64,000 nucleotides of DNA. It comes from a virus. A program made the translations under genes and the position numbers. The stretch lies in the IMG/VR virus record IMGVR_UViG_3300029845_000007, one strand, 5' to 3'. Positions 40 through 63,988 of the stretch are shown here, in pieces (position 1 is the first letter of the stretch; every line of letters starts with the position of its first letter). The notes beneath the pieces are model-generated. The model saw nothing but the letters and a program-made list of their open reading frames with translations. It did not search any database and was not told the DNA's origin.

Positions 40-693
40 TTATTCTAATTTAGATAATTCGTTTGAAACTTTCTCATAACTATTATTATTAGAGATAGCG
101 TTAAAGGTATTAACAGCTCTCTTAATAACTTCTTTCATAGCAACATCTGATAGTTCGTTCGTAGTATCAGTTGCAATATTAATTAGAGTAGGATACTTAA
201 TATAATTAACTAAGAACTTATCTATCTCAAACGTTGCTATAACTTCAATATTTGATTCAGTCTTATAACATATAGGACTTATAACAATAGATTTTGAATG
301 ATAATCATTCATTGTTTCACTAACTAAGTCTAAGTCAATCAATCTGCAACGATAAGATTTATCCCCCTTAAAGGAGTAGACTGATGTATAGAACATCGGT
401 GTAGCATAGTTATTTAATTCTATCTTATAACCTGTACCAAACATTATATCTCCTTGTTCAGCTTCTAGTTTAATACTAGTATGAAGGCTACTAAGTTCTG
501 TTAATCTTATAACATTATCAGAGATACCATCGAGTTCACGATTACCCTTACGAGAGAAAACGTCTTTGACATATTCGATAGCCTCTAAATTAATTAGTCG
601 GTCTAACTCTTCAGGAAGTATAGCTCGGACACTTTTCATACCCATTTGTTGGGCTAAAAGCATGAACTCGTTATGTACCTCTTTTACTTTCAT
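40..693 (-). CDS. hypothetical protein, probably virion/structural (last gene of the capsid operon in this window)
   Basis: 217-aa intact ORF co-oriented with and immediately downstream of the MCP-like gene. No recognisable motif. Carries one copy of the dispersed motif (YSFKGDKS). Confidence 0.4.
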   Translation of the reverse strand: MKVKEVHNEFMLLAQQMGMKSVRAILPEELDRLINLEAIEYVKDVFSRKGNRELDGISDNVIRLTELSSLHTSIKLEAEQGDIMFGTGYKIELNNYATPMFYTSVYSFKGDKSYRCRLIDLDLVSETMNDYHSKSIVISPICYKTESNIEVIATFEIDKFLVNYIKYPTLINIATDTTNELSDVAMKEVIKRAVNTFNAISNNNSYEKVSNELSKLE

Positions 694-705
694 AATAACC
701 AGTTA

Positions 706-1860
706 TTATAATTTAAGTTTAGTTTCAAGTGCTTTTTTGTAGTCAGCATTTTCAGGATTACTGAAATAAGCTAATGCTTCTTTCATGTTGGCTCCAATGA
801 ATCCGCCTTCAGGAGTTAAAACAGTTTGGTTAACTTCCGAACGAACTAGTTCTCCTCTAGCGATAGCTTCTTCAATAAACGCTTGAAGTTCAACTTGTGA
901 ATTGTTAAACAGTTTGTTGAATTTCTCCGGCTCTTTAATTGCGAACTCATCAAGAATCTTTTCTTGAATTGTACGGTCAAGTAACAAGTTAGACAATACA
1001 TCTTGTTTGTTGCTTGCACAGTAGCATACAAAGATAGCTTTGAACTTAACATCATTATCAATAGCATCAAGATAATTACGTCTTGCTTTATTAGCCTGAA
1101 TACGACTACGTTTCAAACGATTAGCTTCACGTTGTTCATCTTTTATGTAGAACTTGATTCGAGAATCAAAACTAATAACAGATACGTCTTTAGCTACAAT
1201 CGGATATAATAAGCAATGACGATATGCAAGATAATCATCTACTTTAATAGGATGTCCATATTTATAACGAGTAGATTCAAGAGCATTAATCTTATTGACA
1301 TATCTAGCAATAGCATCTTTCAACTGTTTAGGATTAGACTTTTCGGCATTATCATATTCTTCTATGATAGCTGTTTCATCTATTTTATAATTCAGATAAT
1401 CTCTTTTCTTTCTCCATTGGAACGAACAGTTGAGTTTCTTTCCGTCACCGTCAACTGGAATAGATATACTATTAAACCAACGTTGAACTCTAGTAACATA
1501 CTCTTGTGCGTTAGGAGAACAGCCAATAAGAGAAGGCATATAAGCTGCCATTTCTTCATAGTTGCTAGTCAAGACTCTAGCTGAATTAATACTACCACCA
1601 ATACTATCATGACGTTCAGCAATGTATCTAGCATTAACTTGACGATAAACAGAATTAATAGTAATATCAGTAGCAAGAGCTATTACAATATATCTTTCTT
1701 CAAGAAAGTCTTTGTCTAAACCATCTTCTTCTTTAAGAATTTGTTCATAGGTTTGTTTAGGAGCTTCAGGAGTTTTAGTCTGCGGAATACTTGCAGACTG
1801 TGGATTTGGATTAGCTAGACTACTACCGAATGTACCGGTTTTTGGTGTTTGTCCTTCCAT
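706..1860 (-). CDS. hypothetical structural protein (capsid-associated?)
   Basis: 384-aa ORF, 25-nt gap after the MCP-like gene, same strand. Function not recognisable from sequence. Confidence 0.4.
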   Translation of the reverse strand: MEGQTPKTGTFGSSLANPNPQSASIPQTKTPEAPKQTYEQILKEEDGLDKDFLEERYIVIALATDITINSVYRQVNARYIAERHDSIGGSINSARVLTSNYEEMAAYMPSLIGCSPNAQEYVTRVQRWFNSISIPVDGDGKKLNCSFQWRKKRDYLNYKIDETAIIEEYDNAEKSNPKQLKDAIARYVNKINALESTRYKYGHPIKVDDYLAYRHCLLYPIVAKDVSVISFDSRIKFYIKDEQREANRLKRSRIQANKARRNYLDAIDNDVKFKAIFVCYCASNKQDVLSNLLLDRTIQEKILDEFAIKEPEKFNKLFNNSQVELQAFIEEAIARGELVRSEVNQTVLTPEGGFIGANMKEALAYFSNPENADYKKALETKLKL

Positions 1861-3377: not shown

Positions 3378-4712
3378 TTAGTTCAAGACTAGTTGGTCAT
3401 TATCAACTGTCTTAGAATTATTACCTTTACTATTGATAATAACAGTCCTTTTACCAGTAGTTTGCGCTGCGGCAGTTCTAATAGATAGAACTTTTTGTTT
3501 ATTAACAGCCATACCAACAAGACTAGCATAATCGCCACCAGTAAACCTTAGAAATGCTTTAAGTAAATCATCCTGCATACGAGCATCAGAATCAACTTTA
3601 GCTTCGTCTAACATATAAGCTGTATTACCTTCACTATCAACAGGAGTAGACACATACTTCAAGAAGTCTTTGCGACTAAGCATTACTTTCTTTCCGTCTT
3701 TGTTACATTGGATTTGTTCAGGAATACTATAACCTAATAGTTCGCCTTTGCTAATAGTCTTTTCTACATTATCCCAATATGCTTTTTCTTCAGCAGCAGC
3801 AGCAGCTTCTTTAGCTTCTACTTGTGCTTTCTGTTCAGCAAGTCGAGATTCATATATGCTATCAACAGCTTCTTTAGATTCAACAGCAGTATCATAAAGA
3901 ATACCAGCGTTCTTACAATAGTCAATAAATTTGTTTACGTCTCCTTTCTTACCGCTAAGTTTCCATTCTTCACGAATGAAAGTAGCTTGTTGTTCTTCGT
4001 TATCTTTACTAACAGTAATCTGACTTCTATCAGGTATTTCTACGAAGTCATCAAGAGTACCATTAAGTTTAAGATGATTAATAACTTGTTCTACTTGAGG
4101 ATAAGTTTCAAATAAGTTATTAATAGCAGCAGTTTGAGCTTCTTTAACTCTACTCTGAACTACTGTTTCAACATAAGCAGCAATGCCTTCTTCATTATCA
4201 TCAAATACGATAGGATTACCGTTTTCATCTTTAAAGTCAGAACCGAAACGAGTTTGTAATTGGTTAAGAACACTTGGTTCAGAACCATTTTGAGCGATAA
4301 GTTCAGCAAGTTCAGTAGCAGTACGGAATACAGTTCCGTCAGCAGCAATAGCATTACCTTCAGCATCAATAGTATAATCTACACCGTCTACATTAATAGT
4401 ATCACCTTCTGATAACTTAACTTCCCCCATAGAGGAGTCTTGTTGCTGATTATCCACTTGACCTTGCTGACCTTGATTTCCAGTATTACCATTACCGTTA
4501 TTAGCATTAGTATCAGGATTAGTATCAGGATTACCATTACCATTACCTTGTTGACCTTGTTGATCTTGTTGTCCAGCACCTTGTTGTCCCTGTCCGGTAG
4601 TATTACCGTTATTACCAGAGCCAGCACCTTGACCTGCACTACCAACAGTAGATATATCATCTATTTTAGTAGTACTTAAATCGAGAGAATCATTATTATT
4701 AAAAGTTGGCAT
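3378..4712 (-). CDS. scaffold-like / capsid-associated protein with disordered Q/G/N-rich N-terminus
   Basis: 444 aa. The N-terminal about 100 aa are low-complexity (QGQQGAG... repeats). The rest is helical with a coiled-coil segment (AEQKAQVEAKEAAAAAEEKA). Lies between portal and MCP, where scaffold proteins usually sit. Confidence 0.35.
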   Translation of the reverse strand: MPTFNNNDSLDLSTTKIDDISTVGSAGQGAGSGNNGNTTGQGQQGAGQQDQQGQQGNGNGNPDTNPDTNANNGNGNTGNQGQQGQVDNQQQDSSMGEVKLSEGDTINVDGVDYTIDAEGNAIAADGTVFRTATELAELIAQNGSEPSVLNQLQTRFGSDFKDENGNPIVFDDNEEGIAAYVETVVQSRVKEAQTAAINNLFETYPQVEQVINHLKLNGTLDDFVEIPDRSQITVSKDNEEQQATFIREEWKLSGKKGDVNKFIDYCKNAGILYDTAVESKEAVDSIYESRLAEQKAQVEAKEAAAAAEEKAYWDNVEKTISKGELLGYSIPEQIQCNKDGKKVMLSRKDFLKYVSTPVDSEGNTAYMLDEAKVDSDARMQDDLLKAFLRFTGGDYASLVGMAVNKQKVLSIRTAAAQTTGKRTVIINSKGNNSKTVDNDQLVLN

Positions 4713-5008
4713 AATAAATATGTTTTAATTATTACTTTCAAGTCAAATGTAGTCTAATAATATAAGAAATACAACTCTTGCTAGTTTGAATACCTTACTA
4801 TTAGGTTTAGAAAAGCCTGTATTTGAATTTAAGTAATATAAGAGTTAAATAGTATCAGCTAAAACGAACGTTCAACATAGGGCAAAAGAATAAGCCATTT
4901 TAAGGCTTGCTACGGCATTTTAATGCTTTATAATACAGTTCATCTCTTTAAGGGGGAAAATTCAATAGAAGTCAAAAAAATGCGGTCTACGTCAATCTTA
5001 CGGGTACG

Positions 5009-7781: not shown

Positions 7782-10079
7782 TTAATAACGTTTACGATTC
7801 CAAAAATTTTCTTTTTCTGTTTGAACTCTTTGTCTATGTTCAAGTTGCTTTTTAGCAAACTTATCATTAGCAGCCCATTCAATACCTCTAACAATCATTT
7901 CTGATACACGGTCAAAGTTACCAGTATTAGACCATTTCTTTAACTCTAGTACCGACTGATAATCATATATAGTATGAAGAACAAGCATGTCACGTCCGTC
8001 TTCAAACTTCCCTATGGGGGAATACAACATTTCCTTCAACATACGCAGACCGTCAAGTTTCACTGTCTCACTACTAATATCATAACCAATAGTATTAACC
8101 TTCTTACTATTAATATTAGTGTCCCAAAGATGAACAGGATGATAACCTAGATACTTAACAGCTTTCCACTTCTTAAAATTACTTACTGTTTCACCACGAT
8201 TGATTTCAACATTAGTTGTACCAAGACAATTATAAGTAACTGCAAAGTAATAACATATTCTGTCTGCCTTTTCTAGTTCATCAGGACGACCATAATACAC
8301 AGCACATAGTCTAGGACGATAACCATTATATATACAGGGATTCATCCATACTTTAATACTATTATGAGAATGTTTGTTAGTAAGCTCTTTTTTATCTTTA
8401 TCAATACCAACAGGGTCATAACTAATACTATATATTCCCGGAGGAGTACCTTTAGTCAACTGACCAGTTTTCTTATCTACATATTCAACTTTAATAGGAT
8501 TAAACCACTTACGAATACAACCTTCGGGGTCTTCATTAGAATGACGAGGAACATTCTTAATATAATCAAAGAAGTCTTTTCTATATACACCACCAGTTGC
8601 AGCAATACGTTCATTAGGAATAAACTCAAAGTTTTCAGAATCATATTCCACAAACTTACCGTCTATATAGAAGTTATACCTATTAGACATCTTTAGCTCT
8701 TGTTCCCATTCATCTAGTATCTCACTACTAAATATATTCTCACTTACAGAACTAAATGATTCACTAGGCATATTAGCATATTGTCCACAATAACTAATAA
8801 ACTTAGCAAATGATTTACTTTTAGCTTTTTCAATAGCACGTTCTTCTTCGGCTATCTGAAAACCTAAAACTATATCAGAATTACCGTCATCATCAAGAGA
8901 TGTAAGAGTAGCAATCTGATTATCATCACCAATCTTATAACCTTCAAGTCCCCAACAATAAGGTTTAAAATAACCACATACTTCCGGTCTACTATCTTTA
9001 TCCCATACATTTTCAAATGCCATAAAGTTTCTACCTCTAGGGTCATAGAAGTTCTGTTCAAATGTAACCCAACCAGCATTAGCTTTACCAGCAGTACCCC
9101 AAGCATTAAGAAAACCAGTAGTAACAGAACCTGTCTTTAGTGTAGGTTCAGTAACATCCATAAAATCATCAAAGTTTTCAAACTCTGACATTTCCTCACA
9201 CTTAATTTCTCCGGCATCTTTACCGACAGCGGCAGAAGGATTATTCTTAGTAGACACAGATATACAAGCACTATTCCAACTATTATCATCAATAATGGCT
9301 GTACTAGGGTCTTTATAACCTAAGATAAAATCACTAGCATCAATCTTAGCTATACCTCTTACAAATGGTGTATTAGATTCATAGAAGATAATCTGTTTCT
9401 TCATAAAGTCTGATAAACCACCTGACTGAACTAAGAACTTGTTATCACTAGCTGCATGAATAACAGCACGATTAGGAGTAAGATTAATAAAGTTTGCAGA
9501 ACCAATAGCTTCCATATAACTAAATCCACCACGACGAGTTTTATCATTTATAAGGAATAAACCATTATCTCGACAGAACTGTTTAATCAAGAAGTACCAC
9601 CATTGACAATCTATGAATCGTGGAAATCCTCTTATCTTACGTCCAGTAACTTTACCTTCTTCAACACGAAGTGTTTTAGTATCTAGTTTAAGAATACGTC
9701 CATAATTGATAAAGTTATAATGTTCACCAGTAATATAAACCTCTTCTATCTCACCAGTTCTAGTATCCATAAGACATGGAGCTTTAAAACCTACAAGTCT
9801 ACGAAGAGTTTCTTGTTTACGAAAGTTAGTATAAGGCATACTATCTACTGCAAACTTAGTATAAACCCCATCTTTCTCATAAGCAATAGCAGCAGGACGA
9901 AGAAGCTCTGTATTAACAAATCTCTTATTTTGGTCAATGTTCATTAAGAATCCTCCACTTTCTCCTATTAAGAAATGGTCAAATGGGTCTTTATATCCAA
10001 AGTCACTAGCATGTTTATACTTCTTTCCTTTATCTTCTTCCATGTAATACATGAAAAATGGATATTCAGACAATTGCAT
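7782..10079 (-). CDS. putative terminase large subunit
   Basis: 765-aa ORF directly upstream of the portal-like gene. Size and position match crAss-like TerL. No canonical Walker A could be found by eye, so the call rests on synteny. Confidence 0.5.
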   Translation of the reverse strand: MQLSEYPFFMYYMEEDKGKKYKHASDFGYKDPFDHFLIGESGGFLMNIDQNKRFVNTELLRPAAIAYEKDGVYTKFAVDSMPYTNFRKQETLRRLVGFKAPCLMDTRTGEIEEVYITGEHYNFINYGRILKLDTKTLRVEEGKVTGRKIRGFPRFIDCQWWYFLIKQFCRDNGLFLINDKTRRGGFSYMEAIGSANFINLTPNRAVIHAASDNKFLVQSGGLSDFMKKQIIFYESNTPFVRGIAKIDASDFILGYKDPSTAIIDDNSWNSACISVSTKNNPSAAVGKDAGEIKCEEMSEFENFDDFMDVTEPTLKTGSVTTGFLNAWGTAGKANAGWVTFEQNFYDPRGRNFMAFENVWDKDSRPEVCGYFKPYCWGLEGYKIGDDNQIATLTSLDDDGNSDIVLGFQIAEEERAIEKAKSKSFAKFISYCGQYANMPSESFSSVSENIFSSEILDEWEQELKMSNRYNFYIDGKFVEYDSENFEFIPNERIAATGGVYRKDFFDYIKNVPRHSNEDPEGCIRKWFNPIKVEYVDKKTGQLTKGTPPGIYSISYDPVGIDKDKKELTNKHSHNSIKVWMNPCIYNGYRPRLCAVYYGRPDELEKADRICYYFAVTYNCLGTTNVEINRGETVSNFKKWKAVKYLGYHPVHLWDTNINSKKVNTIGYDISSETVKLDGLRMLKEMLYSPIGKFEDGRDMLVLHTIYDYQSVLELKKWSNTGNFDRVSEMIVRGIEWAANDKFAKKQLEHRQRVQTEKENFWNRKRY

Positions 10080-10090: not shown

Positions 10091-10585
10091 TTATTTTAAT
10101 AATACGACAACAAGAATAGCTAGCACACTTGTACTAGCTATAAATCCATTACGTTGTTTTTTATATCTCTTAGACTTTTTATACTCCTTATTAAGATTAG
10201 TAATAGCTTCATTACCTATTAACGTTATCCTTCTTATTTCTTCACATTGCTTAGATATAACAGAATCCTGCAAGTAGCTATCTTGAACTTTTAATTCATA
10301 TAACTTCTTGTAGGATTCGTATTGGTTTTTGTACTCTTCTGAAAGTATTAACTTAGCATTGGCTATTCTTAATACTTCTTTATCTAAGCTCCGCTTCGCT
10401 CCGCTATCCCCCATAAAGGGGTGTGATTGCTGTAAACTATCTACCTTCGTCTCTAGTCTCTTGATTCTTAATTCTGACTGGTTTTGACACAAGATATATG
10501 AAGCGTTCGAGGATAGCAATACTATCAGTATCACTAATCGCTTTATTAAATTCTTTCTCATACTGATTAGTATTATTAAGAGCAT
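10091..10585 (-). CDS. membrane-anchored coiled-coil protein (spanin-like; true start may be internal at 10561 or 10423)
   Basis: 164 aa. N-terminal signal-like hydrophobic stretch (MRKNLIKRLVILIVLLSS...C), central coiled coil, C-terminal TM (FIASTSVLAILVVVLLK). Overlaps the upstream ORF by 149 nt in another frame. Confidence 0.3.
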   Translation of the reverse strand: MLLIILISMRKNLIKRLVILIVLLSSNASYILCQNQSELRIKRLETKVDSLQQSHPFMGDSGAKRSLDKEVLRIANAKLILSEEYKNQYESYKKLYELKVQDSYLQDSVISKQCEEIRRITLIGNEAITNLNKEYKKSKRYKKQRNGFIASTSVLAILVVVLLK

Positions 10586-11397: not shown

Positions 11398-12396
11398 TTA
11401 TACAAATAAATTCATTTGTTGTTTCTGACTTCCATTAACAGTTTGATAACGAATATTAAGCATAGTATCTATTTCAGGTTCTAACCTAGATATTTTATAC
11501 CATTTAGCTGTTTCTGTCCTACTTTCATCAATATGAAAACCGTCTTTAAATCTTTGAGGTCTACCATATTGGTTAAGTATAAATGGAACTTCAATATGAC
11601 AAAGAGCTAAACCTTTACATGGTAAACCAGTAATAAGATGAACCATTTTAGCATATAAGTTTAATTGTAAACTATATGTAGTTCCATTACAATTAGGAAG
11701 ACCACCAAAAGGTGGAAGAAGAACATCTTCAGGTTTATGTACCCATTCATCTGTTTCTTGAACAGGTCTAACACTCTTATCTTTCTTATAATAACCTGCC
11801 TGAAATCTAAGACCAGTACGATTAGTTTTCCAATCTAGTATAACGAATCCGTCCTCTCTTATAGGCAATATATCAATAGTACCACTAACTAAATACTTCG
11901 GAAGAAAAGCTCCTATCTCTGAATAAATCTTATAATCTCTTTCAGTATAGAACTTAAATACTTTATATATTTCTGGGTATTTGTTTTCGGTATGGTCAAT
12001 AAAAGCATCAACATCAAGAAGTTTAGTATGACTATCAACAACATCTAAATCAGCAACAGTAACCATTTGTTTACTCTCTTGCTTATTAAGATATTTAATA
12101 GCATTAAAGAACTTACTATTTTGACGAATACCTTCTTCAAAGCTATTATGATAAACATTACCCATATCACAAGCCTTGTCTCTTATCTTATCCCATTGAT
12201 TCTTTATATCTTTAATAGAAGTATTTTCTTCTTTAGCTTTATATTTAGCCCAATAATTAGAATCGAACTTAGGAACATAAGAATGAATAATTGTAGTAGC
12301 ACTAATATAAGAATTACCACAATTATCTGTATACTTATGAGTAGGTTCATCAAAGTATAACTTCGTTTGTTTATATTCAGATTTTACAGGTATCAT
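11398..12396 (-). CDS. hypothetical protein; weak PD-(D/E)xK nuclease-like motif
   Basis: 332 aa. The segment GTIDILPIREDGFVILDWKT resembles a D...(D/E)xK nuclease core. Weak, from sequence pattern only. Confidence 0.3.
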   Translation of the reverse strand: MIPVKSEYKQTKLYFDEPTHKYTDNCGNSYISATTIIHSYVPKFDSNYWAKYKAKEENTSIKDIKNQWDKIRDKACDMGNVYHNSFEEGIRQNSKFFNAIKYLNKQESKQMVTVADLDVVDSHTKLLDVDAFIDHTENKYPEIYKVFKFYTERDYKIYSEIGAFLPKYLVSGTIDILPIREDGFVILDWKTNRTGLRFQAGYYKKDKSVRPVQETDEWVHKPEDVLLPPFGGLPNCNGTTYSLQLNLYAKMVHLITGLPCKGLALCHIEVPFILNQYGRPQRFKDGFHIDESRTETAKWYKISRLEPEIDTMLNIRYQTVNGSQKQQMNLFV

Positions 12397-13112
12397 TTTG
12401 TACTCTCGTATTTCCCCCGTAAAGGAGCGTTGACAATTGTATCACTTACTAATCCTAGCTCTCTCTTTTGAGCCTCTACTTGAGCTTCCAAATCACTAGC
12501 ATCTTTTGCAGACATAGACATAGTAACAACCTTACCACCTCTAGCTTTCTTTTGCTCTATTTCAAGAGCAGCAGCTTGTTTAGCTTCACCTAAAGCTTTA
12601 ATTTGATTAGGAATGATATTAATAATACCATTTAGTTTTGTCACTAAATCAATAACTGGTAAAGCATCTTCGGCTTGTAAACCAGAGTTTAACTTATTAG
12701 TAAGTTGCTCACTAATAATATTTGCTGCACGAGAACTATTATGAACAGCTCTAAGAATACTTTCAAGAGCTTCTCCTGCAACACCCATTTTATCTTCATG
12801 ATATCTATCAATAAGACGAAGAATAAGAGCATCAGGATTCCAATCAGCAGGAAGACCATAATTAGTCTTTGCAGAAGCTAATGCTTCAGAACGACTATAT
12901 CCCATTTGATTAGGTGGAGATTTAGGGTCGGCTACATAAAAGATAACTCCGGCTTCTTTAATATACCGAAGTTTATCCTCACTATTATCACGAAGATATA
13001 ATTCTCTTACATCTTTATCCTGTATCTGATAAACGTTAGGAGCATAGGGATAACCTTGCTCATTAACACTAATCATACCACTTAAATCCAATGGGGAAAT
13101 CTTCGCAATCAT
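12393..13112 (-). CDS. hypothetical protein
   Basis: 239-aa ORF in an operon with its neighbours (4-nt overlap). Contains a motif copy at the 3' end. Confidence 0.4.
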   Translation of the reverse strand: MIAKISPLDLSGMISVNEQGYPYAPNVYQIQDKDVRELYLRDNSEDKLRYIKEAGVIFYVADPKSPPNQMGYSRSEALASAKTNYGLPADWNPDALILRLIDRYHEDKMGVAGEALESILRAVHNSSRAANIISEQLTNKLNSGLQAEDALPVIDLVTKLNGIINIIPNQIKALGEAKQAAALEIEQKKARGGKVVTMSMSAKDASDLEAQVEAQKRELGLVSDTIVNAPLRGKYESTK

Positions 13113-52300: not shown

Positions 52301-55300
52301 GAGTATTACCAATATTATCTATTAGTTTCTTAACAATTTGCAGTCCTGCCTTATTTTCACCATCCATGTGTTGAGGAATATCTTGCTGGGTATAAAGATT
52401 AGAATACCAACCAGTTTTATACTTAGTTTGAATATCCAAGTTAAACTGTTTCAACCTTTCTTTAGAGGGGAATTTCCCATGAGAATCCCAAAATTCTAGT
52501 ACTCTATTAGTAGTAGCTTTTTCAGTAGTAGTAAAGTTAACCTGACCTATATTATTATCAGTCATATATTTAGCTAAAGCAGCAAGTTCACTATTGCCTA
52601 AGAATCTAGGTATAAGTACGAACTCTGCATTTTTAATCTGAATAGGATTAGCTAACTTAGCATCATTATCTATTTCTAAGTCATAATAGAAGTTCTTTTG
52701 AACTTGTATCTTCTTAGATAATTCTCCTAACTTAACATTGTCAATAGGCTTACTTTCGTCATAAAGAGCTTCAATTAAATCTTTATAACTATCATACTCT
52801 CCACGTAGATACATTCTACGAACAAATTCATCAAGAGTAATAAACGATTGAGCATCTGTTACTTCTGACTTATCTTTAGAGAACTGTTTAAGTATAAAAG
52901 CTCTAGTCTCTTTAGATACATTAGCTATATCTAATTGCTTCTTTAAATCATCGAGAACTTTACCGCTACTTTGAACATCTTCAAGAGTAATATATTTGAA
53001 ACTACTATCTATACTAATAGTCTTATTAGGAGCTACTGTTATATCTCCCAAATGCTTTTGTACATTATATAAATCATATCCTGCATAAGCTAATCCTCCG
53101 GCTTGATATTCTTTGTTACGTTTAATAGTATCACGAGAATCTTTATAATATGCTTCATCTCCGAAGAACATATCATTTAGATTATTATATTGAATCTCAT
53201 AGTTAAGTACCATTTCTGCAATGAAAGCGTTAAATGATTCTTGACTAGCATTCTTATATTTATCTACAAACTCTTTATTAGAACTGTATTTAGCGACAGC
53301 TTCTTGTATTCTATAATTGATATAATTATCTATATAATTATAAACTGAATTACGAAGCTCACCAGTAAGTCTAATATTATATTCTCCGTTCTCATCTTGT
53401 ATTAGCGATATTTCACTATTCTTTCCCCCGTAAAGGAGTGAGAATACGTCACCTCCCTCGAATAGCCAATTCATATCCACTGTTTTAGCTGTCTCACTAT
53501 TATAGTTATTAAGATTCTTAACTTTATCAATAAGTAGACTTCTAAATTTAAATACATTACCAGTTGGTTTACCATTGCTATCAAGAATACTTTTACGATA
53601 ATGATAGTTAAGTCTAGCTTCTGATTTACGTAAATCTTTAAACTCTTCTTTTATCTTAGGTTTACCGTTCTCATCTGATACAATAGTTACTACTCCATTC
53701 TCAACAGTTGTCTCAAATAAGAAGTTAATAGCTTGCGCCATTTCTGCGAGTTCTTTAGCATAAATATTAGCATAAGCTACATATATAGGATGTCCACGAT
53801 TAATAGAGCTGTTAGCATTAAATAGTCCAGTATAATCTAACTTATAACTATTAAATACGAAAGTCTTAGGTGCATCAGAAGGAGTTTGAGTAAAGAACTT
53901 AGATTTCTTAACTCCTTTAGTCATCTCATAATTGTCACCATTATTAGCGTATTCATTAAGCGTAATAATATCCCACTCAAGAGCATTAATATCTTTATAA
54001 GATTTAGCCTTTCCTGTTACTTCATTACTAACTCCGTTATATAATTGTGCACCAAATTCACGATAATATTCAGTTAGTTTATAACCAGTATCTGTAAGAC
54101 GAAGTAAACCTGGGACTATTTTTCCATTAGACAAAGTTTTCTCAATAAGAATATTACTATATCTGTATTGAGGAATATTAGTAAATTTAACTAAGTAATC
54201 ACGTAGTTCGGTATTACTAACAGGATTATCATTATAACGATTATCGTTAATTCTTTCAAAGAACTTACTTATATAGTTGTTTTTTAGAATATCACTAACT
54301 AGATTGTTCTCTGCATTAATACTATTAAATTCAGAATCTACTATCTGATAATCTTTAAATCTATTAGATATACGATTGGCTATATTATTAGCATAACCAC
54401 CTTTGTATTGTAGTTGAGATTTATCAAAAGGAACTACCACATATTCTTCATTCTCTTTAGTTTTAGCATATTCACCTGCATAATAGATACGTTGTGCTTC
54501 ATTATCTATCTTTAATAGATTAGTCGCCTTACCTACTACTTTATTAAACTCTAACAAATCATCGACAATAGAAGAGATATTAGAAAGTTGGTTATCACCG
54601 AAGTTACGAACGTAGTTAACAACACCCTGTCTATTGATGCCGAAGTTATACTTATTAAAAATTGCAGCAATTTGCTCCGTAATTTCTTGGATTTCATTTG
54701 TGTTAGAATTTTTTAGTGTAGATAATCTGTTTTTAAGTTCGTCTAATACGGCAATATCATTAGCCATAATAGAAGGATTGTGAATAAGTGAATCGAAACT
54801 ATTAAGTATTTTGTTTTGTAGATTAAGTTTAGGAAAAGTATTACGATTCTTAGTAACCACATTAGAACCGTCTTGACTATAAACTACTTCATTACGTTCC
54901 CAAATAGATTGTTTTAGTTGAGTAAATATCTTATTTCTCATCTGAACATTGGCTTCGTCTTCTAGTAAACGTGCAGCATATTCTAAATGAGATACTTCTT
55001 TAAATCTTGCAGCAATAGTATGGAAACTCTCTATCATAGCTTCAACACTAGAGAAATTACCATAGTTATTAATAGCTTTAAAAGAACTAGAAAAAGTAGT
55101 ACTTTCAGCCATGCCTGAATAAGTATTATTAGAAGTATCAGGCTGTTCATTTATAAAACTATTACTATTTGTTTTAGGTAAACGAGCAAACCATTCTTTT
55201 ACTTCTTTGCTAACATTTTTATCTATATCTTTTCGTTGGTCAGATATTTCAGACCAATCAGCACGAAGAGCAGCAATAGTTTCTTGGTCATCTTGACGAG

Positions 55301-56241: not shown

Positions 56242-59200
56242 TTAACTACATACGAAACTAAGCTCACCAGTGTCAAACAAATGCGTCACAATAGCCTTTT
56301 GTCGATTATTCAATCCCTCAATCAGACTATCGAAATTATCGACTTGACGGTAGTTATCACTTATACTACTATCTAAATCTAAGTCTATATCAGGAATATC
56401 AAATACATCATCAGTAGGAACGCTAACATCTTCCTCTGCTCTATCAAAAGTATCGTCATGAGTAACAGTAGAAGTACTAGCTGTATCACTAGTTTCTAAT
56501 CCAATAGTAGATAAACGATTACGAACTTCTCCAAGTAATGTATTATCTATTTGTCCTATCTTACCTATTAATTCTACTAAAGCATCTACTATTTTAGTAA
56601 ATAGGTTGTTTGATTCAATAGTAGGATTAGAATCATACTTAATTCTAGCTAGTAATCTAGCAAATGTGCGATTAGTAATAGCTTCGACTACAAACTCTTC
56701 AATAGCAACAGCTCTAGGTTTACTACTATTTAAGAAATCTCCATACTCATCTATTAGACGAGAATCTTGATTAATAAAGTTAGCAAACTTATCGTATAAG
56801 TCTCCGAATGATTGTTCTATATTAGCACGTTCATCATTAAGTAGATAATGTACACCTTCATGTATAAGAGTAAGAACTCTACGTTCAGGAGCAAGACTAT
56901 TAAAACGATTACTAAGAGTAATAGTATTACCACCAGCGACTATTCCTGCAAATCTACCTTTTTCACCTACTGTTTCAATATCAGGACTAAGTTTAATACC
57001 AGCAGATTCTAATGCAGATACAACAGATAATAGATTAGGATTATCAGTATTAGCTTGTGCAACTTCCATAAGAGTACCTATTTGAGGAACACTGTCTTGA
57101 CTAGCAAGTGGGTCAGGTACAACTACGGGAGACACAGTTTGTTGCCCCTTTATGGGGGAAGTAGCGGCGTTAGCCGCGTCAGTACGACTAGCATTGCGAC
57201 TAGGATTCATAAGGGTAATAGTCCTATTATAAACATCACCAACATAATTAAAGTTACTAACAATATTACCTTTACTATCAGTAACACTTCCTAAATCAGT
57301 AACCAATACTCCGTCCTTAGCTACAAATTCTTCATAACTACTATAACCAGTATCAAACCATTCATCTTGAAGTATATTAGGTATCTTAGCTTGTAACTTA
57401 CCGCCTACTACTCTAAATAAACTAGATTCACCACGAATAGCCGAATTAACAACATTACGAGTAAGTAAAGCATATACTTCTTGTAACATTTTACTAAAGT
57501 TACCATGATTATTAGTAGGAACAAAACCATTAGGCATACGAGCCATAAGTCTTCTAGGTTTAAGTTCACCAGGAATAGAGAAAGCTACATTTCTATCTTT
57601 AAGATTAAAATAAATAGTTGGTGCAACTCTATTAATAGGTATTAAAGCATGACCTCTTACTTCATAACCATACAATACTTTCTGTTTACCTATATATTTA
57701 GATACTTCTTCTAATAGTTGAGTATGAAGATTTTCATTGCCTTGTAAAGTAGCATCTAATAAAGAATGAAGTAGTTTATCTAATCCTTCATTAAACCTCT
57801 TAGTATATTCAGTAGCACCAGTTTCACTATTACTCATAGTATTCTCACGACTAGGAACTGCAATAAGTCTTCCTTCTGAATCTTTAATAGTCATACCTAC
57901 TACATTTCTAGGAATACGACTAGCCGCAATAATAGTATTGGTTTTAATATCAGCTACTCCACCGTCAACTCCTACTACTAAACGATAACCGTCAGTTGCT
58001 TCACTAGTAGTAACATCTCCAAACTTACGATATATAGGATTACCTTGTTTATCTTTAGCATAAATAACACTACCTGAACTTGTACGTCCAACAACTAGAC
58101 GTTTCTTTTTAGACTTAGTTTTACTAATAGAGGACTTTAAGTTATTAATGTCCGTATAAGACTTCTTGAGTTTATTCATCCAATTAGTTAACGAATCGTT
58201 AACAATGGTACTAAAATCAGACTGATTAACATTAAGAGCATTATTAAAGAATATAATACTATTAAGATGTCTAATCCTATCTAATAGATTAGTTTGAGTA
58301 TCACCGAATAAACTAGTTAGATTCTTCCAGTTCTTATTCTCTTGTAAAGCATTAAGCTGATGTCCGAATGTTCCTTCAACTTCAGGGTTATTACGAACAC
58401 GATACAAACGACGTATATTATTAAGTGTTTGTACAAACTCTTTAGCACTTTCATCTTCATTACTAATAATAGATTGGAGTTGCGTTATAAAATCTATATT
58501 ACCATTTCTAACAGTGTATCTCCAACCTTGATTTATAACTTCAACGTTCCCATTATTATAATTAATTTTAGGAAACTCACCTATCTTAATTCCACGAGAT
58601 TTAACGATAAGATTATCGTTTTCATCTAGTTCTACATTTACTGTATCATTAGTCTTTAACTGACCGATACGAGAGTAAACCTTACTATCATTTAGATTAA
58701 CTAGATTAAAGAAGTAACCATTATCTTTAGTATTCTGTCTATTCTCTGCAATAGCATTTTCTAATGTCTTACTTGCAGACTGTATAATATCAGAAGGCGT
58801 CTTAACTTCTGTATCAACATTAACTATCTTACCGTTTATTATTTGACGATTAGCTAAAACTTTAATATCATTATACAGATTAATAGCTCTAGGATTAAGT
58901 TGTTGTAAATATATCATCATATCATTAAGACTAGTAAAAGTTTTACCTTCTACTTCATTGCCTTGTATCTGATTATACAAGTCTATGATAAGATTGATTT
59001 CTTCTATACGTTGACGCTGACCTTCTAAATCATTATCAGATATAGCTGATTCAAGAACTGTATCATCAGTTCTAGTATCTTCTTTCTTAGAAGTATCTAC
59101 AACAGTAATATCTCCAATAGCAATAGCTGCATTAAGTTCTTCAATAGTGACATCAGCAATTATATTGCCTTTAGCATCTAATCCGTCAATACTTACATTT

Positions 59201-62200
59201 CCGAATCTACTAATACGAATATCAATATCGTTAACTTTAACTGGTTTACGAGATACGTCACTAAGACTTGCAAAAGGATTTACTATCGTAAATTCAAGAT
59301 TACCTATATTAGACTTATTTACAATACCTGAATTAGATTGAGATACTACTTTGTCTAACGTTTCCTTTAATTTCTTCTCTTTTGCAGTCTTTGGTTTAGG
59401 TCTAGGCTTAGGCTTAACTTCTAGTTCTTCTTGAGTCGTCGCTTCGCTCCTCCCTTCCCCCATAGAGAAGGTTTCTTGCTGATTCTCCGGCTGTCTTTGC
59501 TGTACTTCATTCTGTATAGCTAACTTATTTCTTCTCTTAGTAATAGCTTCTCTTAGATTACTTATTTCATTCTTACCATTCTCTGAATTAGTTAAAATAC
59601 TAACAGCATTAGATAAACTCTTATTGCTAGTATTCTGACTTTCTTCATCAGTAAACGCATTATCTAGTGCTTTCTCAAGATTACCAAGCTCTTCTTCATT
59701 AGCCATATTAACAAAGTCATTAAGATTCTTCTTTGCTGATTTAACTAGATTCTTAGCTGCATCTTCTAATTCTTTCTTACGAGTATCTTCAAATTCCTTA
59801 GCTTGTTCATTAGTAGTAATAATACGAGAACGATAATTATCTCTACGAATTTCATCAAGAAGTATCTGTCCCATATTATCCATATACTCTGAATTAATAT
59901 TATGAACTTGTTTAGCAAGAGTACCAAGACTAAAGTCTTTACCTGCCTGTTTAAACAGAGCTACATCACTTTCATCAAGTTCTTCTATTTGTTTCTTGAT
60001 TAAGTTGTTCTGTTCTTCGCTACCTTCTATTCCTAATGCAATATTCTCTACACTACGAACATTATCTAGAAACAGACTTTCCATAGAACTTAAACCTCTT
60101 CGTAAGTCTGTAACCTTAGATTCAATTATTCGCGATAAATCAATATACTGACTAGCTTGCGCTCTATCTAAAGGATTGTTACTATTCTTTAGACTATTAT
60201 AAGTAGACATTACTTCTCTACGATACTGTTCTAATATACCTAATTGCATACGATTCTTAGCCATTGGATTAAGAACTTCATTAATAGCCGGTATGCTATT
60301 CTCTAATTGAGATTGAATAGTATTAAGTCTTTCTACTCGTTTATTTAATAAGTCCGCTTCTTGTGCATTAACTATATTCTCTGATATAGCAACATCTAGT
60401 AAAGCATCATCAATATTAGCACTACGTAACGCAGTAGAATAATTGACATATCTATCGAGAACAGTACGCATAGTTTTCTTTAATTCTTGCGTATCTCTAT
60501 CGTATTCAACATCATCTACAAGACCTGAATCAACTAGTTTCTTCTTTAGTCTAGGGTCTTCAATATAATCTTCAAGTAGTTCATAATTACCTGAACGAAT
60601 AGCATTTAAAGTAAGAGTAGTAGTAAACTTCTCTTTAGCCGCTGCCCGCAAATCTTCTTGTTCTTCAGGGCTAACCTTAGTATAACGAGTAGTACCAACT
60701 GTTGGGTCTTGACTAACAGTACCGTCATCTAAATAAGTAATAGGATTACCATTAGCATCACGTTCTATTTGATATGGATTCTCACCATTATCAATAATCT
60801 GCATCTGACGAGCATACTCATTGAATACCTGTTCACGACCATTTATTTCAGCAATACGTTGTTTCTCTTCTACATTACCACCTTTACGATTATTAATAGC
60901 TGACATAGTACCACCAAAAGTAATACCACCAATAACTCCCCAAAGTGCAGCATTGTATAATTGAGGATTCTGCAAGTACTTCTCTATTCTATCCATAGAT
61001 ACAGCACCATTGTATTGTTCAGCTTGACCTAACAAATAACGACCGTATAAAGTACCTTCTTCTTGACCTACAAAGTTAATAGCTTCTTCAATACCTTCTG
61101 TTAATTCAGATAATAGTAGATTCTCACTAGAATTAACAAAGCGATTTATTTTACCTGCAAAATCTTTAATAGTACCTTTTGCCGCTTGACCTAAAGTTTG
61201 ACTAGCAGATTCAACACCAGTAGAAGCTATTCTATCGAGAGCTTGATTCTGTGAATAACGAATACGTGGAGTAATAGCACGATTGACTTGTCCTATTGCT
61301 TTATTAACAGCACGTAACTGCATGAAATCAAAGAATACGTTACCTGCGTTATAACCAAAGTTACGCATAGCTGCCTTATCTGCAACTATAAGAGCAGCTT
61401 CTTCTTTAGTTCTTTCTTTAGCCTCACTTGCAATATCAGGATTGTTATCTAACCAATTCTGAAACTCTTCGTCAGACATTCCAGTAAATAGAGACAATGC
61501 TTCACCTTCTATTTGTTCTGCAACACCACGAGCTTCTTGATAATTCTCACCTAAACGCATACCAATAGCTGTAATACCGTCATTAGCTAATATCTTTAAT
61601 CTATTAGCACGATATACATTATCTAATTTAGTAGCCTTCTTTGCCCAATTCATTGCACGACTTACTTTAGAACTACTACGTCCTAATGCTGCAACTCCTT
61701 TACCAACAGCTCCAACTCCTTTAGTTAAAAGAGTGCCAGGAATCATTAAAGATAGAGAACTAGCAATACTAGGAACTTGACTAAAGAACCAACCTGAAAA
61801 GTCATTCATATCAAATGCTTTATCAGGGTTCTCACGATATATAGGAAATAAATCGTCACGAACATAATCAGATATAGTATCACCAGCTCTTGTAATAGGA
61901 TTACTAAAAGGTTTATCATCCCATAATCCGGCAGTAGCTAAATCTATTAGCATACCCATACCTCCAACAGTATCACCAATAACAGTACCAATAGTTTGTC
62001 CTAAAGCATTACTTGCCTGTTTCCAAGCTGATTGATTCTTAGCACGTAGAGTTTCTAATTCTTCTCTACTTTGATACCTATTAGGTTCAGCACCATACTT
62101 AGCTAATGAATGATAATCTTCCTCTGTACCAGTAAACACTTCTTTACCTGTAAGATTACGAAACATAAAGTTGCCTTGTGCAGCAACATCAGGTTTATAT

Positions 62201-62298
62201 TTAGTAACAGTAGGAACATCATTAGCCATATTAACAGAATTAGCCCCACTAGTTAGTGGAGCTTTTTCTACTGATATATTATCAAACATGTTTGGCAT
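56242..62298 (-). CDS. giant virion protein with C-terminal zincin-like metallopeptidase motif (2018 aa)
   Basis: HExxH in RRVLTLIHEGVHYLL (nt about 56862-56876). Long coiled-coil-rich central region. Adjacent to the RNAP-like giant gene. Confidence 0.5.
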   Translation of the reverse strand: MPNMFDNISVEKAPLTSGANSVNMANDVPTVTKYKPDVAAQGNFMFRNLTGKEVFTGTEEDYHSLAKYGAEPNRYQSREELETLRAKNQSAWKQASNALGQTIGTVIGDTVGGMGMLIDLATAGLWDDKPFSNPITRAGDTISDYVRDDLFPIYRENPDKAFDMNDFSGWFFSQVPSIASSLSLMIPGTLLTKGVGAVGKGVAALGRSSSKVSRAMNWAKKATKLDNVYRANRLKILANDGITAIGMRLGENYQEARGVAEQIEGEALSLFTGMSDEEFQNWLDNNPDIASEAKERTKEEAALIVADKAAMRNFGYNAGNVFFDFMQLRAVNKAIGQVNRAITPRIRYSQNQALDRIASTGVESASQTLGQAAKGTIKDFAGKINRFVNSSENLLLSELTEGIEEAINFVGQEEGTLYGRYLLGQAEQYNGAVSMDRIEKYLQNPQLYNAALWGVIGGITFGGTMSAINNRKGGNVEEKQRIAEINGREQVFNEYARQMQIIDNGENPYQIERDANGNPITYLDDGTVSQDPTVGTTRYTKVSPEEQEDLRAAAKEKFTTTLTLNAIRSGNYELLEDYIEDPRLKKKLVDSGLVDDVEYDRDTQELKKTMRTVLDRYVNYSTALRSANIDDALLDVAISENIVNAQEADLLNKRVERLNTIQSQLENSIPAINEVLNPMAKNRMQLGILEQYRREVMSTYNSLKNSNNPLDRAQASQYIDLSRIIESKVTDLRRGLSSMESLFLDNVRSVENIALGIEGSEEQNNLIKKQIEELDESDVALFKQAGKDFSLGTLAKQVHNINSEYMDNMGQILLDEIRRDNYRSRIITTNEQAKEFEDTRKKELEDAAKNLVKSAKKNLNDFVNMANEEELGNLEKALDNAFTDEESQNTSNKSLSNAVSILTNSENGKNEISNLREAITKRRNKLAIQNEVQQRQPENQQETFSMGEGRSEATTQEELEVKPKPRPKPKTAKEKKLKETLDKVVSQSNSGIVNKSNIGNLEFTIVNPFASLSDVSRKPVKVNDIDIRISRFGNVSIDGLDAKGNIIADVTIEELNAAIAIGDITVVDTSKKEDTRTDDTVLESAISDNDLEGQRQRIEEINLIIDLYNQIQGNEVEGKTFTSLNDMMIYLQQLNPRAINLYNDIKVLANRQIINGKIVNVDTEVKTPSDIIQSASKTLENAIAENRQNTKDNGYFFNLVNLNDSKVYSRIGQLKTNDTVNVELDENDNLIVKSRGIKIGEFPKINYNNGNVEVINQGWRYTVRNGNIDFITQLQSIISNEDESAKEFVQTLNNIRRLYRVRNNPEVEGTFGHQLNALQENKNWKNLTSLFGDTQTNLLDRIRHLNSIIFFNNALNVNQSDFSTIVNDSLTNWMNKLKKSYTDINNLKSSISKTKSKKKRLVVGRTSSGSVIYAKDKQGNPIYRKFGDVTTSEATDGYRLVVGVDGGVADIKTNTIIAASRIPRNVVGMTIKDSEGRLIAVPSRENTMSNSETGATEYTKRFNEGLDKLLHSLLDATLQGNENLHTQLLEEVSKYIGKQKVLYGYEVRGHALIPINRVAPTIYFNLKDRNVAFSIPGELKPRRLMARMPNGFVPTNNHGNFSKMLQEVYALLTRNVVNSAIRGESSLFRVVGGKLQAKIPNILQDEWFDTGYSSYEEFVAKDGVLVTDLGSVTDSKGNIVSNFNYVGDVYNRTITLMNPSRNASRTDAANAATSPIKGQQTVSPVVVPDPLASQDSVPQIGTLMEVAQANTDNPNLLSVVSALESAGIKLSPDIETVGEKGRFAGIVAGGNTITLSNRFNSLAPERRVLTLIHEGVHYLLNDERANIEQSFGDLYDKFANFINQDSRLIDEYGDFLNSSKPRAVAIEEFVVEAITNRTFARLLARIKYDSNPTIESNNLFTKIVDALVELIGKIGQIDNTLLGEVRNRLSTIGLETSDTASTSTVTHDDTFDRAEEDVSVPTDDVFDIPDIDLDLDSSISDNYRQVDNFDSLIEGLNNRQKAIVTHLFDTGELSFVCS

Positions 62299-62302
62299 AC
62301 GC

Positions 62303-63988
62303 TTACTTCATTAAGTCGTTCATTTGATTAAGTATAACTTGACTAGGAGTTTCTCCCGTAAGACTAGAGTACATTCGATTAAAGAATTGAAATACTTGTC
62401 TCTTAGTATCTATATCTAATTCATTTAGATTACCAGTAGCACCTGCCATTATCATAGCCTTCTGCATAAGCGGACGAGCAATCACTTGTTGCTCTTCTAT
62501 GGGGGAATTTGCAATAGAACCATTTCTAGCACTAATCAAATCTATATCTTCTTTAACAGGAGCAAGAACAGCATTAGCTTGATTGTTTTGAAGCATACGT
62601 TCAAATAACTCACTTTCAGTAATTTTAATTACAGGAGAATCACTAGCATCGAGTATTTGATACAGGTTGCCATCAGTAACAGCTGAATAACTACCGTCTC
62701 CAAATTCACTATCTGATAAACGATAACCTCTTTTAAGAGCGTTATTGTACTTAATAGAATTGAGAGTGTCCCATGCTTTAACAGCAGGCAAAGATTTAAA
62801 TCTCTCTATCTCATCATTAAGTACAGCACCTGTAATCATATAGTCTCCGGCTACTGCGTTCTGTATTCTATCTTCCATATCAGAATCAGGATTCTTACCA
62901 ACATTCTTACCTGTCTTTACAGTATAAGGAATATTTAAGAATATACCATATTCACCAGTAGAAGCAGAACTACACCAACCGTTATTAATATTCTTCTTCT
63001 TAATTTGTGCTTGAATAGTTTGCATGATAGCATCTCTATCTCTACTATCTTCAACAACTTCAAGAACTCCTTCTTCATTACGTTTCTTAATAACTATACT
63101 TCCTGGATTAGCAATACTAACCATATTCATAACCCGTTCATTATAGTCTTTTAGTTGTTCAGATTCAAAGCCCTGACCTAAAGCAACAACATGAGGCGGT
63201 AAGTCAAATACCGCTAAGTCTACATAAGTAGGAGGAAGAGTTTTAGATACTCTTTCAGTCGCAGCATTAGATATTTGTGCAGCTTTCTCATATACATAGG
63301 CTATTGAGTTTTTATCACTTCCGGCAGTTGTTATCTCTCCACGACCAAGTGCTCTAAAGCCAGCCATAAATGCAGTGACTTCACTACCATAATATTTATT
63401 ACCATGATAGACTTCATCAGCCCTAGTAAATGATTTAGGTTCTACACCTTCATTAGTAAATCCAATAGGATTAACTTTTAATACTTCACTTATTTCAGGA
63501 GCTAAACGAGTATAAGCATCTTTACTAATACGAATATATTCTTTATCCCCTATTTTAGAGAATGATACATCTTGTCTAGTAAGACCCATATCAACTCTTA
63601 GTTTAGATATAATAGCAGCTTTACTAGCTTCGTTAATAGGATTAACAAGAACTGTATCGAAACTATTACCTTGCGAATCTGTGAATAACTTGTTCATTCT
63701 ATTAGCATATTCACGTTGCATAGGATTATTAGTATCTGCCATATTTCCATTACTAAGTCTCTTACCTAAGAAATCAGATGCAAACTGTTCATCTTGTGTA
63801 AGATGTCCTTTCATAGCATCTAATCTATTATTAGCGTTATTAATACCACTATAATAATTATATGCTTCATCCAATGCTTGCTTCTTAGCTGTATCAGACA
63901 GATTGCTATTATTAGCAATACTTGACCTTAATTGAGCATACGCTTTATCTAATGGAACAGATTTAGATATTCCATAAGTAGCAAACAT
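62303..63988 (-). CDS. hypothetical virion protein (561 aa in window; the frame stays open to the window edge, so the true start may lie beyond 64000)
   Basis: ORF co-oriented and translationally coupled with the 2018-aa gene. Confidence 0.45.
   Translation of the reverse strand: MFATYGISKSVPLDKAYAQLRSSIANNSNLSDTAKKQALDEAYNYYSGINNANNRLDAMKGHLTQDEQFASDFLGKRLSNGNMADTNNPMQREYANRMNKLFTDSQGNSFDTVLVNPINEASKAAIISKLRVDMGLTRQDVSFSKIGDKEYIRISKDAYTRLAPEISEVLKVNPIGFTNEGVEPKSFTRADEVYHGNKYYGSEVTAFMAGFRALGRGEITTAGSDKNSIAYVYEKAAQISNAATERVSKTLPPTYVDLAVFDLPPHVVALGQGFESEQLKDYNERVMNMVSIANPGSIVIKKRNEEGVLEVVEDSRDRDAIMQTIQAQIKKKNINNGWCSSASTGEYGIFLNIPYTVKTGKNVGKNPDSDMEDRIQNAVAGDYMITGAVLNDEIERFKSLPAVKAWDTLNSIKYNNALKRGYRLSDSEFGDGSYSAVTDGNLYQILDASDSPVIKITESELFERMLQNNQANAVLAPVKEDIDLISARNGSIANSPIEEQQVIARPLMQKAMIMAGATGNLNELDIDTKRQVFQFFNRMYSSLTGETPSQVILNQMNDLMK

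Follow-up and report, generated by a model that had tools for sequence, protein, structure and literature searches.

The 64,000-nt stretch of DNA analysed here (the window; IMG/VR virus record IMGVR_UViG_3300029845_000007) carries a dispersed 16-nt motif, TTCCCCC-N-TA-R-AGGAG, which is a cis-acting, asymmetric DNA signal of ~16 bp, maintained by purifying selection wherever a gene or spacer tolerates it. The sites of each orientation make up an array of their own, with a spacing of approximately 5.5-6 kb, and the two arrays interleave; the signal is common to five genera of the Intestiviridae, including the prototypical crAssphage. The window itself belongs to Jahgtovirus (Crassvirales, Intestiviridae, Churivirinae), as do the crAss-like Bacteroides phage crAss002 and the uncultured phage cr107_1. 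A 6-kb gene at 56242-62298 is 91.4% identical to its counterpart in cr107_1 and 87.7% to that in crAss002, and over the aligned bases of the whole window, which is reversed relative to both records, the identities are 93% and 88%, respectively.

The enrichment of this motif, originally predicted from the window alone, is borne out by every count that we made. The strict search pattern TTCCCCCDTARAGGAG has 10 exact matches in the window where 0 are expected, and tolerating up to three mismatches yields 23, compared with 0.75 on average, and never more than 3, in 100 dinucleotide shuffles. In a weight matrix built from the sites, 23 score at least 20.8 and the next best sequence in the window no more than 9.8, and all except three of the C5/G5 runs in the 64 kb fall within sites. 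Nearly all of the information is confined to the compact 16-nt block (roughly 27 bits over 16 bp). With one copy per ~3 kb, the sites are divided into 12 in the plus and 11 in the minus orientation, and 18 of the 23 lie inside open reading frames (ORFs), the other five being intergenic. Of the 24 positions listed in the original prediction, 23 are correct within a few bases (the one given as 4412 is 4422). The remaining one, at 23063 (CTATCCCGTAAGGGAG), scores 8.6 and is not a member, and the stretch surrounding it aligns to neither crAss002 nor cr107_1. The degenerate versions named alongside them are all weak: those at 6848 (TTCCCCCGTAGTGATA) and 52457 (TTCCCCTCTAAAGAAA) match over half of the word and have perhaps decayed from full copies, and those at 8441 and 13085 are unconvincing.

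Selection acts here on the DNA rather than on a protein or RNA product. Intragenic copies are about equally often sense and antisense and use several reading frames, which rules out a protein-level motif. Moreover, the copies share their positions with crAss002 and cr107_1, and the changes that do occur fall at the motif's own degenerate positions (8, 11 and 14-16). Over all orthologous haplotypes retrieved, the core differs in 1-3% of comparisons versus 10-16% in the flanks, and at third-codon positions 2 of 78 were changed in the core compared with 225 of 967 in the ±90-nt flanks (p = 1e-6 against crAss002; p = 0.001 against cr107_1). Single copies fold no better than shuffled sequence, and scans against Rfam and for tRNAs returned 0 matches, so the bidirectional RNA element that had also been entertained is ruled out. 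Frame and strand independence, together with the near-frozen third-codon positions, thus support the earlier proposal of a DNA-level signal rather than a strand-specific promoter.

The copies are GC-rich islands within AT-rich DNA, and those in sense orientation often encode S-P-I-K/E-E, features that might suggest remnants of a small mobile repeat (like miniature inverted-repeat transposable elements or repetitive extragenic palindromes) or a peptide motif repeated at the protein level. Either origin is hardly credible. The antisense copies encode unrelated peptides in other frames (x-S-x-M-G-E, P-L-R-G or L-L-Y-G-G), and third-codon positions in the core are conserved. The same positions are occupied in relatives, some even across genera, and the copies sit in frame with the ORFs, without inverted ends or other terminal repeats, duplicated target sites or presence/absence insertions. 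Where a copy is missing from a relative, the difference consists nearly entirely of substitutions and not of an inserted element, and the decaying mobile repeat of the original prediction is accordingly abandoned.

The most informative property of the sites is their arrangement. Successive sites tend to switch orientation (22 of 29 transitions in crAss002, p = 0.005; 24 of 32 in the Diorhovirus genome cr3_1, p = 0.008), and they do so because sites of the same orientation are spaced far more evenly than chance would have it. The coefficient of variation per orientation is 0.32-0.46 in most arrays, compared with ~0.92 for random placement, and shuffling the orientation labels over fixed positions gives p = 0.0003-0.03 in each of six complete genomes, all of which carry approximately equal numbers of plus and minus sites. 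When same-orientation gaps from these genomes are pooled (n = 185), their median is 5.5 kb; only 5 are shorter than 2 kb, where ~53 would be expected if placement were random, and 8 exceed 12 kb. Neighbours of opposite orientation lie within 300 bp of each other in 25 of 128 cases, mostly in intergenic spacers. Among pairs less than 130 bp apart the count is 15 convergent versus 2, and conserved convergent pairs are separated by 27-40 bp. That regularity is greater within each orientation than in the pooled set suggests a reader that tells the strands, or its direction of travel, apart, and for which the signal is needed across the whole genome in both directions. As transcription runs one way within each gene block, the machine in question is more likely to belong to DNA metabolism (forks, helicases or nucleases) than to gene expression.

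The spacing also shows a local peculiarity. Sense sites are missing over the portal-to-tail-fibre block of crAss002 (6.6-28.7 kb) and of Rudgehvirus (~90.0-25.9 kb, across the record start), leaving gaps in the sense sites of 22 and 26 kb in which the antisense sites keep their ~5-kb spacing. This bias is not seen in cr3_1.

Distribution across crAss-like phages and bacteria

An exact-match scan of IMG/VR returned 120 stretches, and all those with multiple copies are Jahgtovirus-like; unrelated contigs carry single matches only, consistent with chance. De novo k-mer enrichment then revealed the same word, in genus-specific spelling and at 28-33 copies per genome, in four other genera: Rudgehvirus jaberico ([A/C]TCCCCTGTA[A/G]AGGAG, 28 copies), Diorhovirus cr3_1 (TTCCCCCGTAGAGGAA, 32 copies), Delmidovirus cr110_1 (GAGACCCCCCGTAGAGGA, 33 copies) and Carjivirus, represented by CrAssphage ZA of the prototypical crAssphage lineage (ACTCCCCGT[A/G]GAGGATGG and GACCCCCCGT[A/G]GAGGATGG, 32 copies). 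The recurrence in related crAss-like genomes, to which the original prediction had pointed as a telling observation, is thus found well beyond Jahgtovirus. The 5′ half of the word is genus-specific and its 3′ half conserved, and the shared core, CCC-Y-D-T-R-R-AGGA, occurs 16-28 times per genome compared with 0.05-0.2 times in Markov simulations. Within Delmidovirus, 11 of 416 core positions are changed versus 8.6% genome-wide, and the core is likewise conserved within Carjivirus. Few site positions are shared across genera. The clearest is that in the primase gene, kept in each of the four other genera tested, and the helicase/SNF2 gene has another, kept in two of them; turnover has affected most of the rest.

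No arrays were found in two related families or in the bacterial DNA examined. Core matches number 0 in the Crevaviridae genome cr127_1 and 0 in the Steigviridae phage DAC15, whose host is Bacteroides thetaiotaomicron. A scan of 185,579 bacterial and archaeal genomes yielded at least 120 listed stretches, among which there are single copies only, scattered over unrelated taxa and none of them from a Bacteroides-genus genome, Bacteroides chromosomes themselves lying outside the scan. No exact core match occurs in p5482, a 33-kb plasmid of B. thetaiotaomicron, where one-mismatch matches are at chance level. A word belonging to the host genome is therefore not supported by the matches listed in the genome scan, by DAC15 or by p5482. 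Given the genus-specific spelling, and as the word was found neither in the bacterial DNA examined nor in the Crevaviridae and Steigviridae genomes, one of which belongs to a phage that infects Bacteroides, the reader of the signal is most likely phage-encoded.

Both genomes devoid of the motif have repeats of their own. In cr127_1, approximately 10 copies of a ~40-nt sequence, TATAATGGCCACAAGGGCGAGAGGTGTTCCGAAATTCGT, are mostly intergenic, occur in both orientations and are sometimes paired (e.g. at 11354, 11910, 19697, 28696, 28869, 42038, 42230 and 59323). DAC15 contains the 8-mer ACCAGAAG 37 times (2.3 expected) and CACCAGAAG 22 times (0.4 expected), also in both orientations. The 8-mer is absent or at chance level in all other crAss-like genomes examined, and its pooled spacing is somewhat even (p = 0.007), without regularity within either orientation. 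Possibly this is a further dispersed word private to one lineage.

Sites and genome layout of the window

The window comprises head and terminase genes on the minus strand (1-14.3 kb), a non-coding hub (14.3-18.4 kb), a replication and recombination block on the plus strand (18.4-42.1 kb) and part of the giant RNA-polymerase and virion gene block on the minus strand (43.3-64 kb). In the first of these, the site ATCCCCCTTAAAGGAG at 361-376 (+) is antisense in the ORF at 40-693 (-), scores 26.3 and is kept in both crAss002 and cr107_1, and TTCCCCCATAGAGGAG at 4422-4437 (+) is antisense in the ORF at 3378-4712 (-). The weak intergenic site TTCCCCCTTAAAGAGA at 4943-4958 (-) is present in cr107_1 and missing, through substitutions only, from crAss002. 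The terminase large-subunit gene (7782-10079, -) carries TTCCCCCATAGGGAAG at 8007-8022 (-) in sense orientation, identical in 7/7 orthologous haplotypes. Further along, ATCCCCCATAAAGGGG at 10406-10421 (+) has a GC box, GCTCCGCTTCGCTCCGCT, upstream and TGTGATTGCTGT downstream, and TTCCCCCGTAAAGGAG at 12412-12427 (+) lies antisense at the 3′ end of the ORF at 12393-13112 (-).

The extended copy that had been singled out in the hub is indeed there: at 17876-17924 (+), in an intergenic position at the head of the rightward gene block, the GC box CGCTCGCAAAGCTCGC is followed by the site CTCCCCCATAAAGGAG (17897-17912) and then by CGTGATTGCTGT. Longer shared flanks, as initially described, are real for six copies (10406, 17897, 21259, 42766, 42801 and 59455, four of them intergenic), which have an upstream GC box of GCTCGC or GCTYC repeats; a downstream GTGATTGCTGT is common to the copies at 10406 and 17897.

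Within the plus-strand block, TTCCCCCTTAAAGGAG at 21259-21274 (-) has the GC box GCTCCGCTTCGCTTCGCT upstream, TTCCCCCGTAAAGGAA at 21973-21988 (+) is sense in the ORF at 21679-22032 (+), and TCCCCCCGTAGAGGAG at 27020-27035 (-) is antisense in the DNA polymerase gene (24942-27299, +). The spelling TTCCCCCATAAAGGAG recurs at 28052-28067 (+), sense in the helicase/SNF2 gene (27534-29000, +) at a position shared with Rudgehvirus and cr3_1, at 34115-34130 (+), sense in the ORF at 33789-34301 (+), and at 36035-36050 (-), in a spacer and antisense to the gene block. The site shared with all four other genera tested is TTCCCCCTTAAAGGAT at 32969-32984 (-), antisense in the primase gene (32152-33285, +). 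Two more copies complete the block, namely TTCCCCCATAGAGGAG at 38495-38510 (+), sense in the Gp157-like gene (37998-38771, +), and the weak site TTCCCCCGTAAGGAAA at 39649-39664 (-), antisense in the DUF932 gene (38891-39979, +). In the giant-gene block, TTCCCCCATAAAGGAG at 48354-48369 (-) is sense and TTCCCCCGTAAAGGAG at 53423-53438 (+) antisense in the gene for the 4239-aa RNA polymerase. The 2018-aa gene likewise holds one of each, TTCCCCCATAAAGGGG at 57145-57160 (-) in sense and TTCCCCCATAGAGAAG at 59455-59470 (+), with its upstream GC box, in antisense orientation; TTCCCCCATAGAAGAG at 62492-62507 (-) is sense in the ORF at 62303-63988 (-).

Between the converging gene blocks, two extended copies (42766-42781, plus, and 42801-42816, minus) form a convergent inverted pair at 42747-42839 that folds into a long hairpin (-28.6 kcal/mol, z -6.8) and probably doubles as a two-way terminator. 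This strong hairpin, the position of the copy at 17897 at the head of the rightward block, and a resemblance to phage promoters are what would be expected if the word were a transcription signal, that is, a promoter, terminator or pause site for a phage or host RNA polymerase. As an explanation of the arrays as a whole it is very improbable, because about half of the copies are antisense in long essential genes, the sense copies lie mid-gene in genes of 2000-4000 codons, single copies have no hairpin, and the even spacing ignores gene boundaries.

Several features of the surrounding sequence deserve mention in their own right. The hub (14300-18400), parts of which do not align to crAss002 and cr107_1, contains several repeat families, among them a 9-12-nt periodic array at 17187-17326, the near-palindromic TTACACAGATTTGCGTGTAA in two exact copies (16946 and 16989) and ACCAAATGACTATAAACATATTGC in three (14980, 15371 and 15407); these families are candidates for origin or packaging signals. 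In the ORF at 15506-16180, four units of the 12-nt tandem repeat GCTAGTAATGAT (15575-15634) encode a short A-S-N-D peptide repeat. A 282-aa ORF at 23163-24011 (+), within ~1 kb that cannot be aligned to crAss002 or cr107_1, has a weak, below-threshold match to an I-HmuI NUMOD-like homing-endonuclease domain. The superfamily 1 helicase ORF directly downstream (24047-25015, +) is shortened to 322 aa, compared with 485 aa in crAss002, and the 282-aa ORF is probably a homing-endonuclease insertion in or beside the helicase gene. Finally, positions 26000-28000 and 52000-53000 are nearer to crAss002 than to cr107_1, opposite to the rest of the window (at 26-27 kb the divergence is 5% from crAss002 and 24% from cr107_1), a switch of affinity that is evidence of mosaic recombination among Jahgtovirus lineages.

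Candidate functions of the arrays

Our best single guess, a tentative one, is that the sites serve as a Chi-like signal, private to the phage, in the processing of DNA ends or in recombination. According to a review (PMC10136315), crAss001 has fixed terminal repeats, but for genomes of the crAss002 type terminal redundancy and circular permutation are predicted, so that DNA ends could lie anywhere in the genome. Whichever end a helicase/exonuclease resects from, and in whichever direction, it would run into a site of the correct orientation after ~6-10 kb at most. At that site, resection would be attenuated and the end handed over to the phage RecT/SSB recombination module, leading to circularisation or recombination-dependent replication. 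If ends may occur anywhere, a process running inward from them can count on a signal in the correct orientation only where such signals are near at hand all over the genome, on either strand, which matches the observed pattern. It is this coverage logic, together with the co-occurrence of the RecT/SSB module with the motif, that places a Chi-like signal ahead of the other readings.

The co-occurrence emerged when the crAss002 proteins were searched for by tblastn in seven genomes. Among the non-structural ones, RecT, the neighbouring gp60, SSB, gp3 and HNH ORFs are those with matches in every genus that bears the motif but in neither genome that lacks it; the polymerase, primase, helicases, ligase and PD-(D/E)XK nuclease are shared at least with cr127_1. 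No reader of the word was found. For gp60, matches to DNA-binding folds are weak and below significance, and Foldseek finds nothing. Similarly, gp3 has no family or PDB-sequence match, and its model is a helical hairpin with generic coiled-coil matches only. Searches of the uncharacterised ORFs against Pfam, PHROGs, NCBIfam and PDB sequences gave nothing useful, and no repressor was found. In the window, a conserved 251-aa protein encoded between RecT and SSB (30111-30866, +) likewise matches no Pfam, PHROGs or NCBIfam family; its structure model is confident (predicted local distance difference test 82.6) but has no significant structural neighbour, the best weak matches being DNA-binding pseudobarrel domains.

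Several observations weigh against a Chi-like role. Known Chi sites are 5-8 nt long and read by the host RecBCD or AddAB, whereas the site here has 16 nt, and no phage helicase-nuclease that reads it was identified. The phage also has a gene of the Gp157 type, annotated as an inhibitor of host nucleases, and with it there would be less need of protection against them. Permutation is predicted for crAss002 only, and the prototypical crAssphage may have defined terminal repeats. The gene co-occurrence is based on seven genomes and on BLAST-level sensitivity. Mosaic breakpoints, located as divergence change-points in three Jahgtovirus genomes, do not cluster at the sites, being no closer to them than random positions in a test of low power (p ~0.35), and the recombination hotspot put forward in the original prediction is on the same ground unsupported. 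Lastly, in architecture and information content the word resembles promoters of phage RNA polymerases, or the site of a two-domain DNA-binding protein, more closely than it does Chi.

Two per-strand arrays would equally give both-direction coverage to strand-specific start sites for nucleic-acid synthesis, used by the phage primase or the virion-type RNA polymerase on single-stranded DNA at forks, such that forks moving in either direction would convert every stretch to duplex in pieces of ~5.5 kb. We regard this as unlikely. The layout of the word, with a GC block, an AT-rich trinucleotide and a purine-rich AGGAG, and with a genus-specific 5′ half preceding a conserved 3′ half, fits such a role, and it bears a likeness to the T7/T3/SP6 promoters (T3 CCCTCACTAAAGGGAGA against CCCCCA-TAAAGG-AG, with gaps). 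The homologous RNA polymerase of phi14:2 accepts as template only DNA that is single-stranded or denatured and has no known promoter motif, and related two-barrel phage polymerases use conserved promoter motifs, the motif search in that work having been made at a minimum width of 15 nt. However, DnaG-type primases normally need trinucleotides only, fragments of 5.5 kb are long for Okazaki pieces, and crAss families without the motif also have the polymerase, primase and helicase. The divergence around the sites points both ways: in Jahgtovirus it is higher over the 40 nt that follow AGGAG than over the 40 nt upstream of the site (177/880 versus 110/880, p = 2e-5), but the asymmetry is absent in Carjivirus and reversed in Delmidovirus. 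A directional mutational footprint is thus not general, and we do not rely on it.

The concentration of roughly 27 bits in 16 bp is typical of a two-domain DNA-binding protein, and the sites might be double-stranded targets bound by a phage protein with a part in organising, marking, partitioning or silencing the genome, in which case protein geometry would make orientation matter. Head-to-head contacts between bound proteins are suggested by the excess of convergent arrangements among the closest pairs, some intergenic copies carry the extra GC box, and the prototypical crAssphage has been proposed in a preprint to be a phage-plasmid. If orientation were irrelevant to binding, the pooled set would be expected to be the most regular, and instead each orientation is the more regular. 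The sites are also tied neither to promoters nor to the direction of transcription, and gp60 yields no significant fold match that would supply the protein, which leaves this explanation unlikely.

A footprint of the same kind is known from the site-specific single-strand nicks of T5, tf/Rembedalsseter and phiKMV. In tf-like phages, the nick motifs are conserved across many related phages at ~9-13 per 45 kb, 88% of them in coding sequence (PMC11780129). HNH endonuclease ORFs are present in the genomes studied here. Nicking at the present sites would have to take place on both strands, and there lies the difficulty: known nick motifs occupy one strand only, whereas here both strands are used equally, and nicking both members of a convergent pair 27-40 bp apart would come close to a double-strand break. 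No nickase was identified, and we consider this reading quite unlikely.

Whichever of these machines reads the word, the signal constrains the coding sequence of essential genes across five genera and thereby marks a process that should be important to the phage. A dispersed, selected genomic word is in itself of a known general kind. We found no published description of this motif by sequence or keyword, including in the crAssphage phage-plasmid preprint and the Crassvirales review, and no described precedent for the combination of a 16-nt phage-private word, two even per-strand arrays and family-wide conservation. It is possible, if still short of probable, that the Intestiviridae, which include the most abundant human-gut phage, carry unrecognised genome-wide signalling in which two strand-specific arrays and a co-evolving phage-encoded reader direct a DNA transaction, be it priming, nicking or the processing of ends, that can begin at any point of a permuted genome and run either way. 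If so, no current category of phage cis-elements would cover it, and it would bear on a field, that of crAss-like phage replication, genome-end handling and persistence, that is largely unknown. In practical terms, ~30 defined sites per genome and their genus-specific spellings provide an exact handle for finding the reader, and the word may serve as a compact metagenome marker for Intestiviridae genera.

Comparison with known systems

Among dispersed words, the DNA uptake sequences (DUS) of Neisseria and the uptake signal sequences (USS) of Haemophilus offer a close likeness: they are 10-16 nt long, present in both orientations and in certain frames within genes, and their intergenic inverted pairs double as hairpins. 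Moreover, USS are reported to be unusually evenly spaced. They differ in coming from naturally competent bacteria, where they are read by the uptake machinery, whereas the word described here belongs to phage genomes, is not found in the bacterial DNA examined and is regular separately in each orientation. Stretches with several copies were encountered only among crAss-like phage contigs, the bacterial matches listed being single and scattered.

Repressor sites provide a second comparison. Stoperators of cluster A mycobacteriophages and the C1 operators of P1 are likewise asymmetric, 13-17 bp long, present at ~20-30 per genome and co-evolving with a phage protein. Those sites are found near promoters or between closely spaced genes and keep one orientation with respect to transcription, whereas ~80% of the sites in the window are intragenic and their orientation is unrelated to transcription. 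Promoters of single-chain phage polymerases (T7/T3/SP6, and P23-45 gp64 and gp96) resemble the word in length, information content, the genus-specific 5′ half joined to a conserved 3′ half and the AT-rich step followed by a purine run. These promoters, however, are upstream of genes and in sense orientation, unlike a word that is half antisense and intragenic, and no T7-like polymerase is annotated. The nick motifs of T5, tf/Rembedalsseter and phiKMV share with it a lineage-specific conserved word of ~10-30 copies, mostly coding and kept across related genomes of little nucleotide identity (PMC11780129), but they are one-stranded and clustered toward one genome end, and the present sites are on both strands, evenly spread and in some cases in convergent pairs ~35 bp apart.

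Chi itself shares with the word described here the character of an asymmetric oligonucleotide that is over-represented genome-wide in genes, is read in one direction and, as the regular spacing within each orientation indicates for our sites, covers the genome per orientation. Chi, on the other hand, is a short word of 5-8 nt, read by the host, abundant in the host chromosome and biased with the direction of replication, whereas the phage sites are 16 nt long and lineage-private, interleave in equal numbers on the two strands and were not found in the bacterial DNA examined. If the arrays do represent a direction-specific coverage signal that is private to the phage, a principle familiar from cells, through Chi and uptake sequences, would apply to viruses as well.

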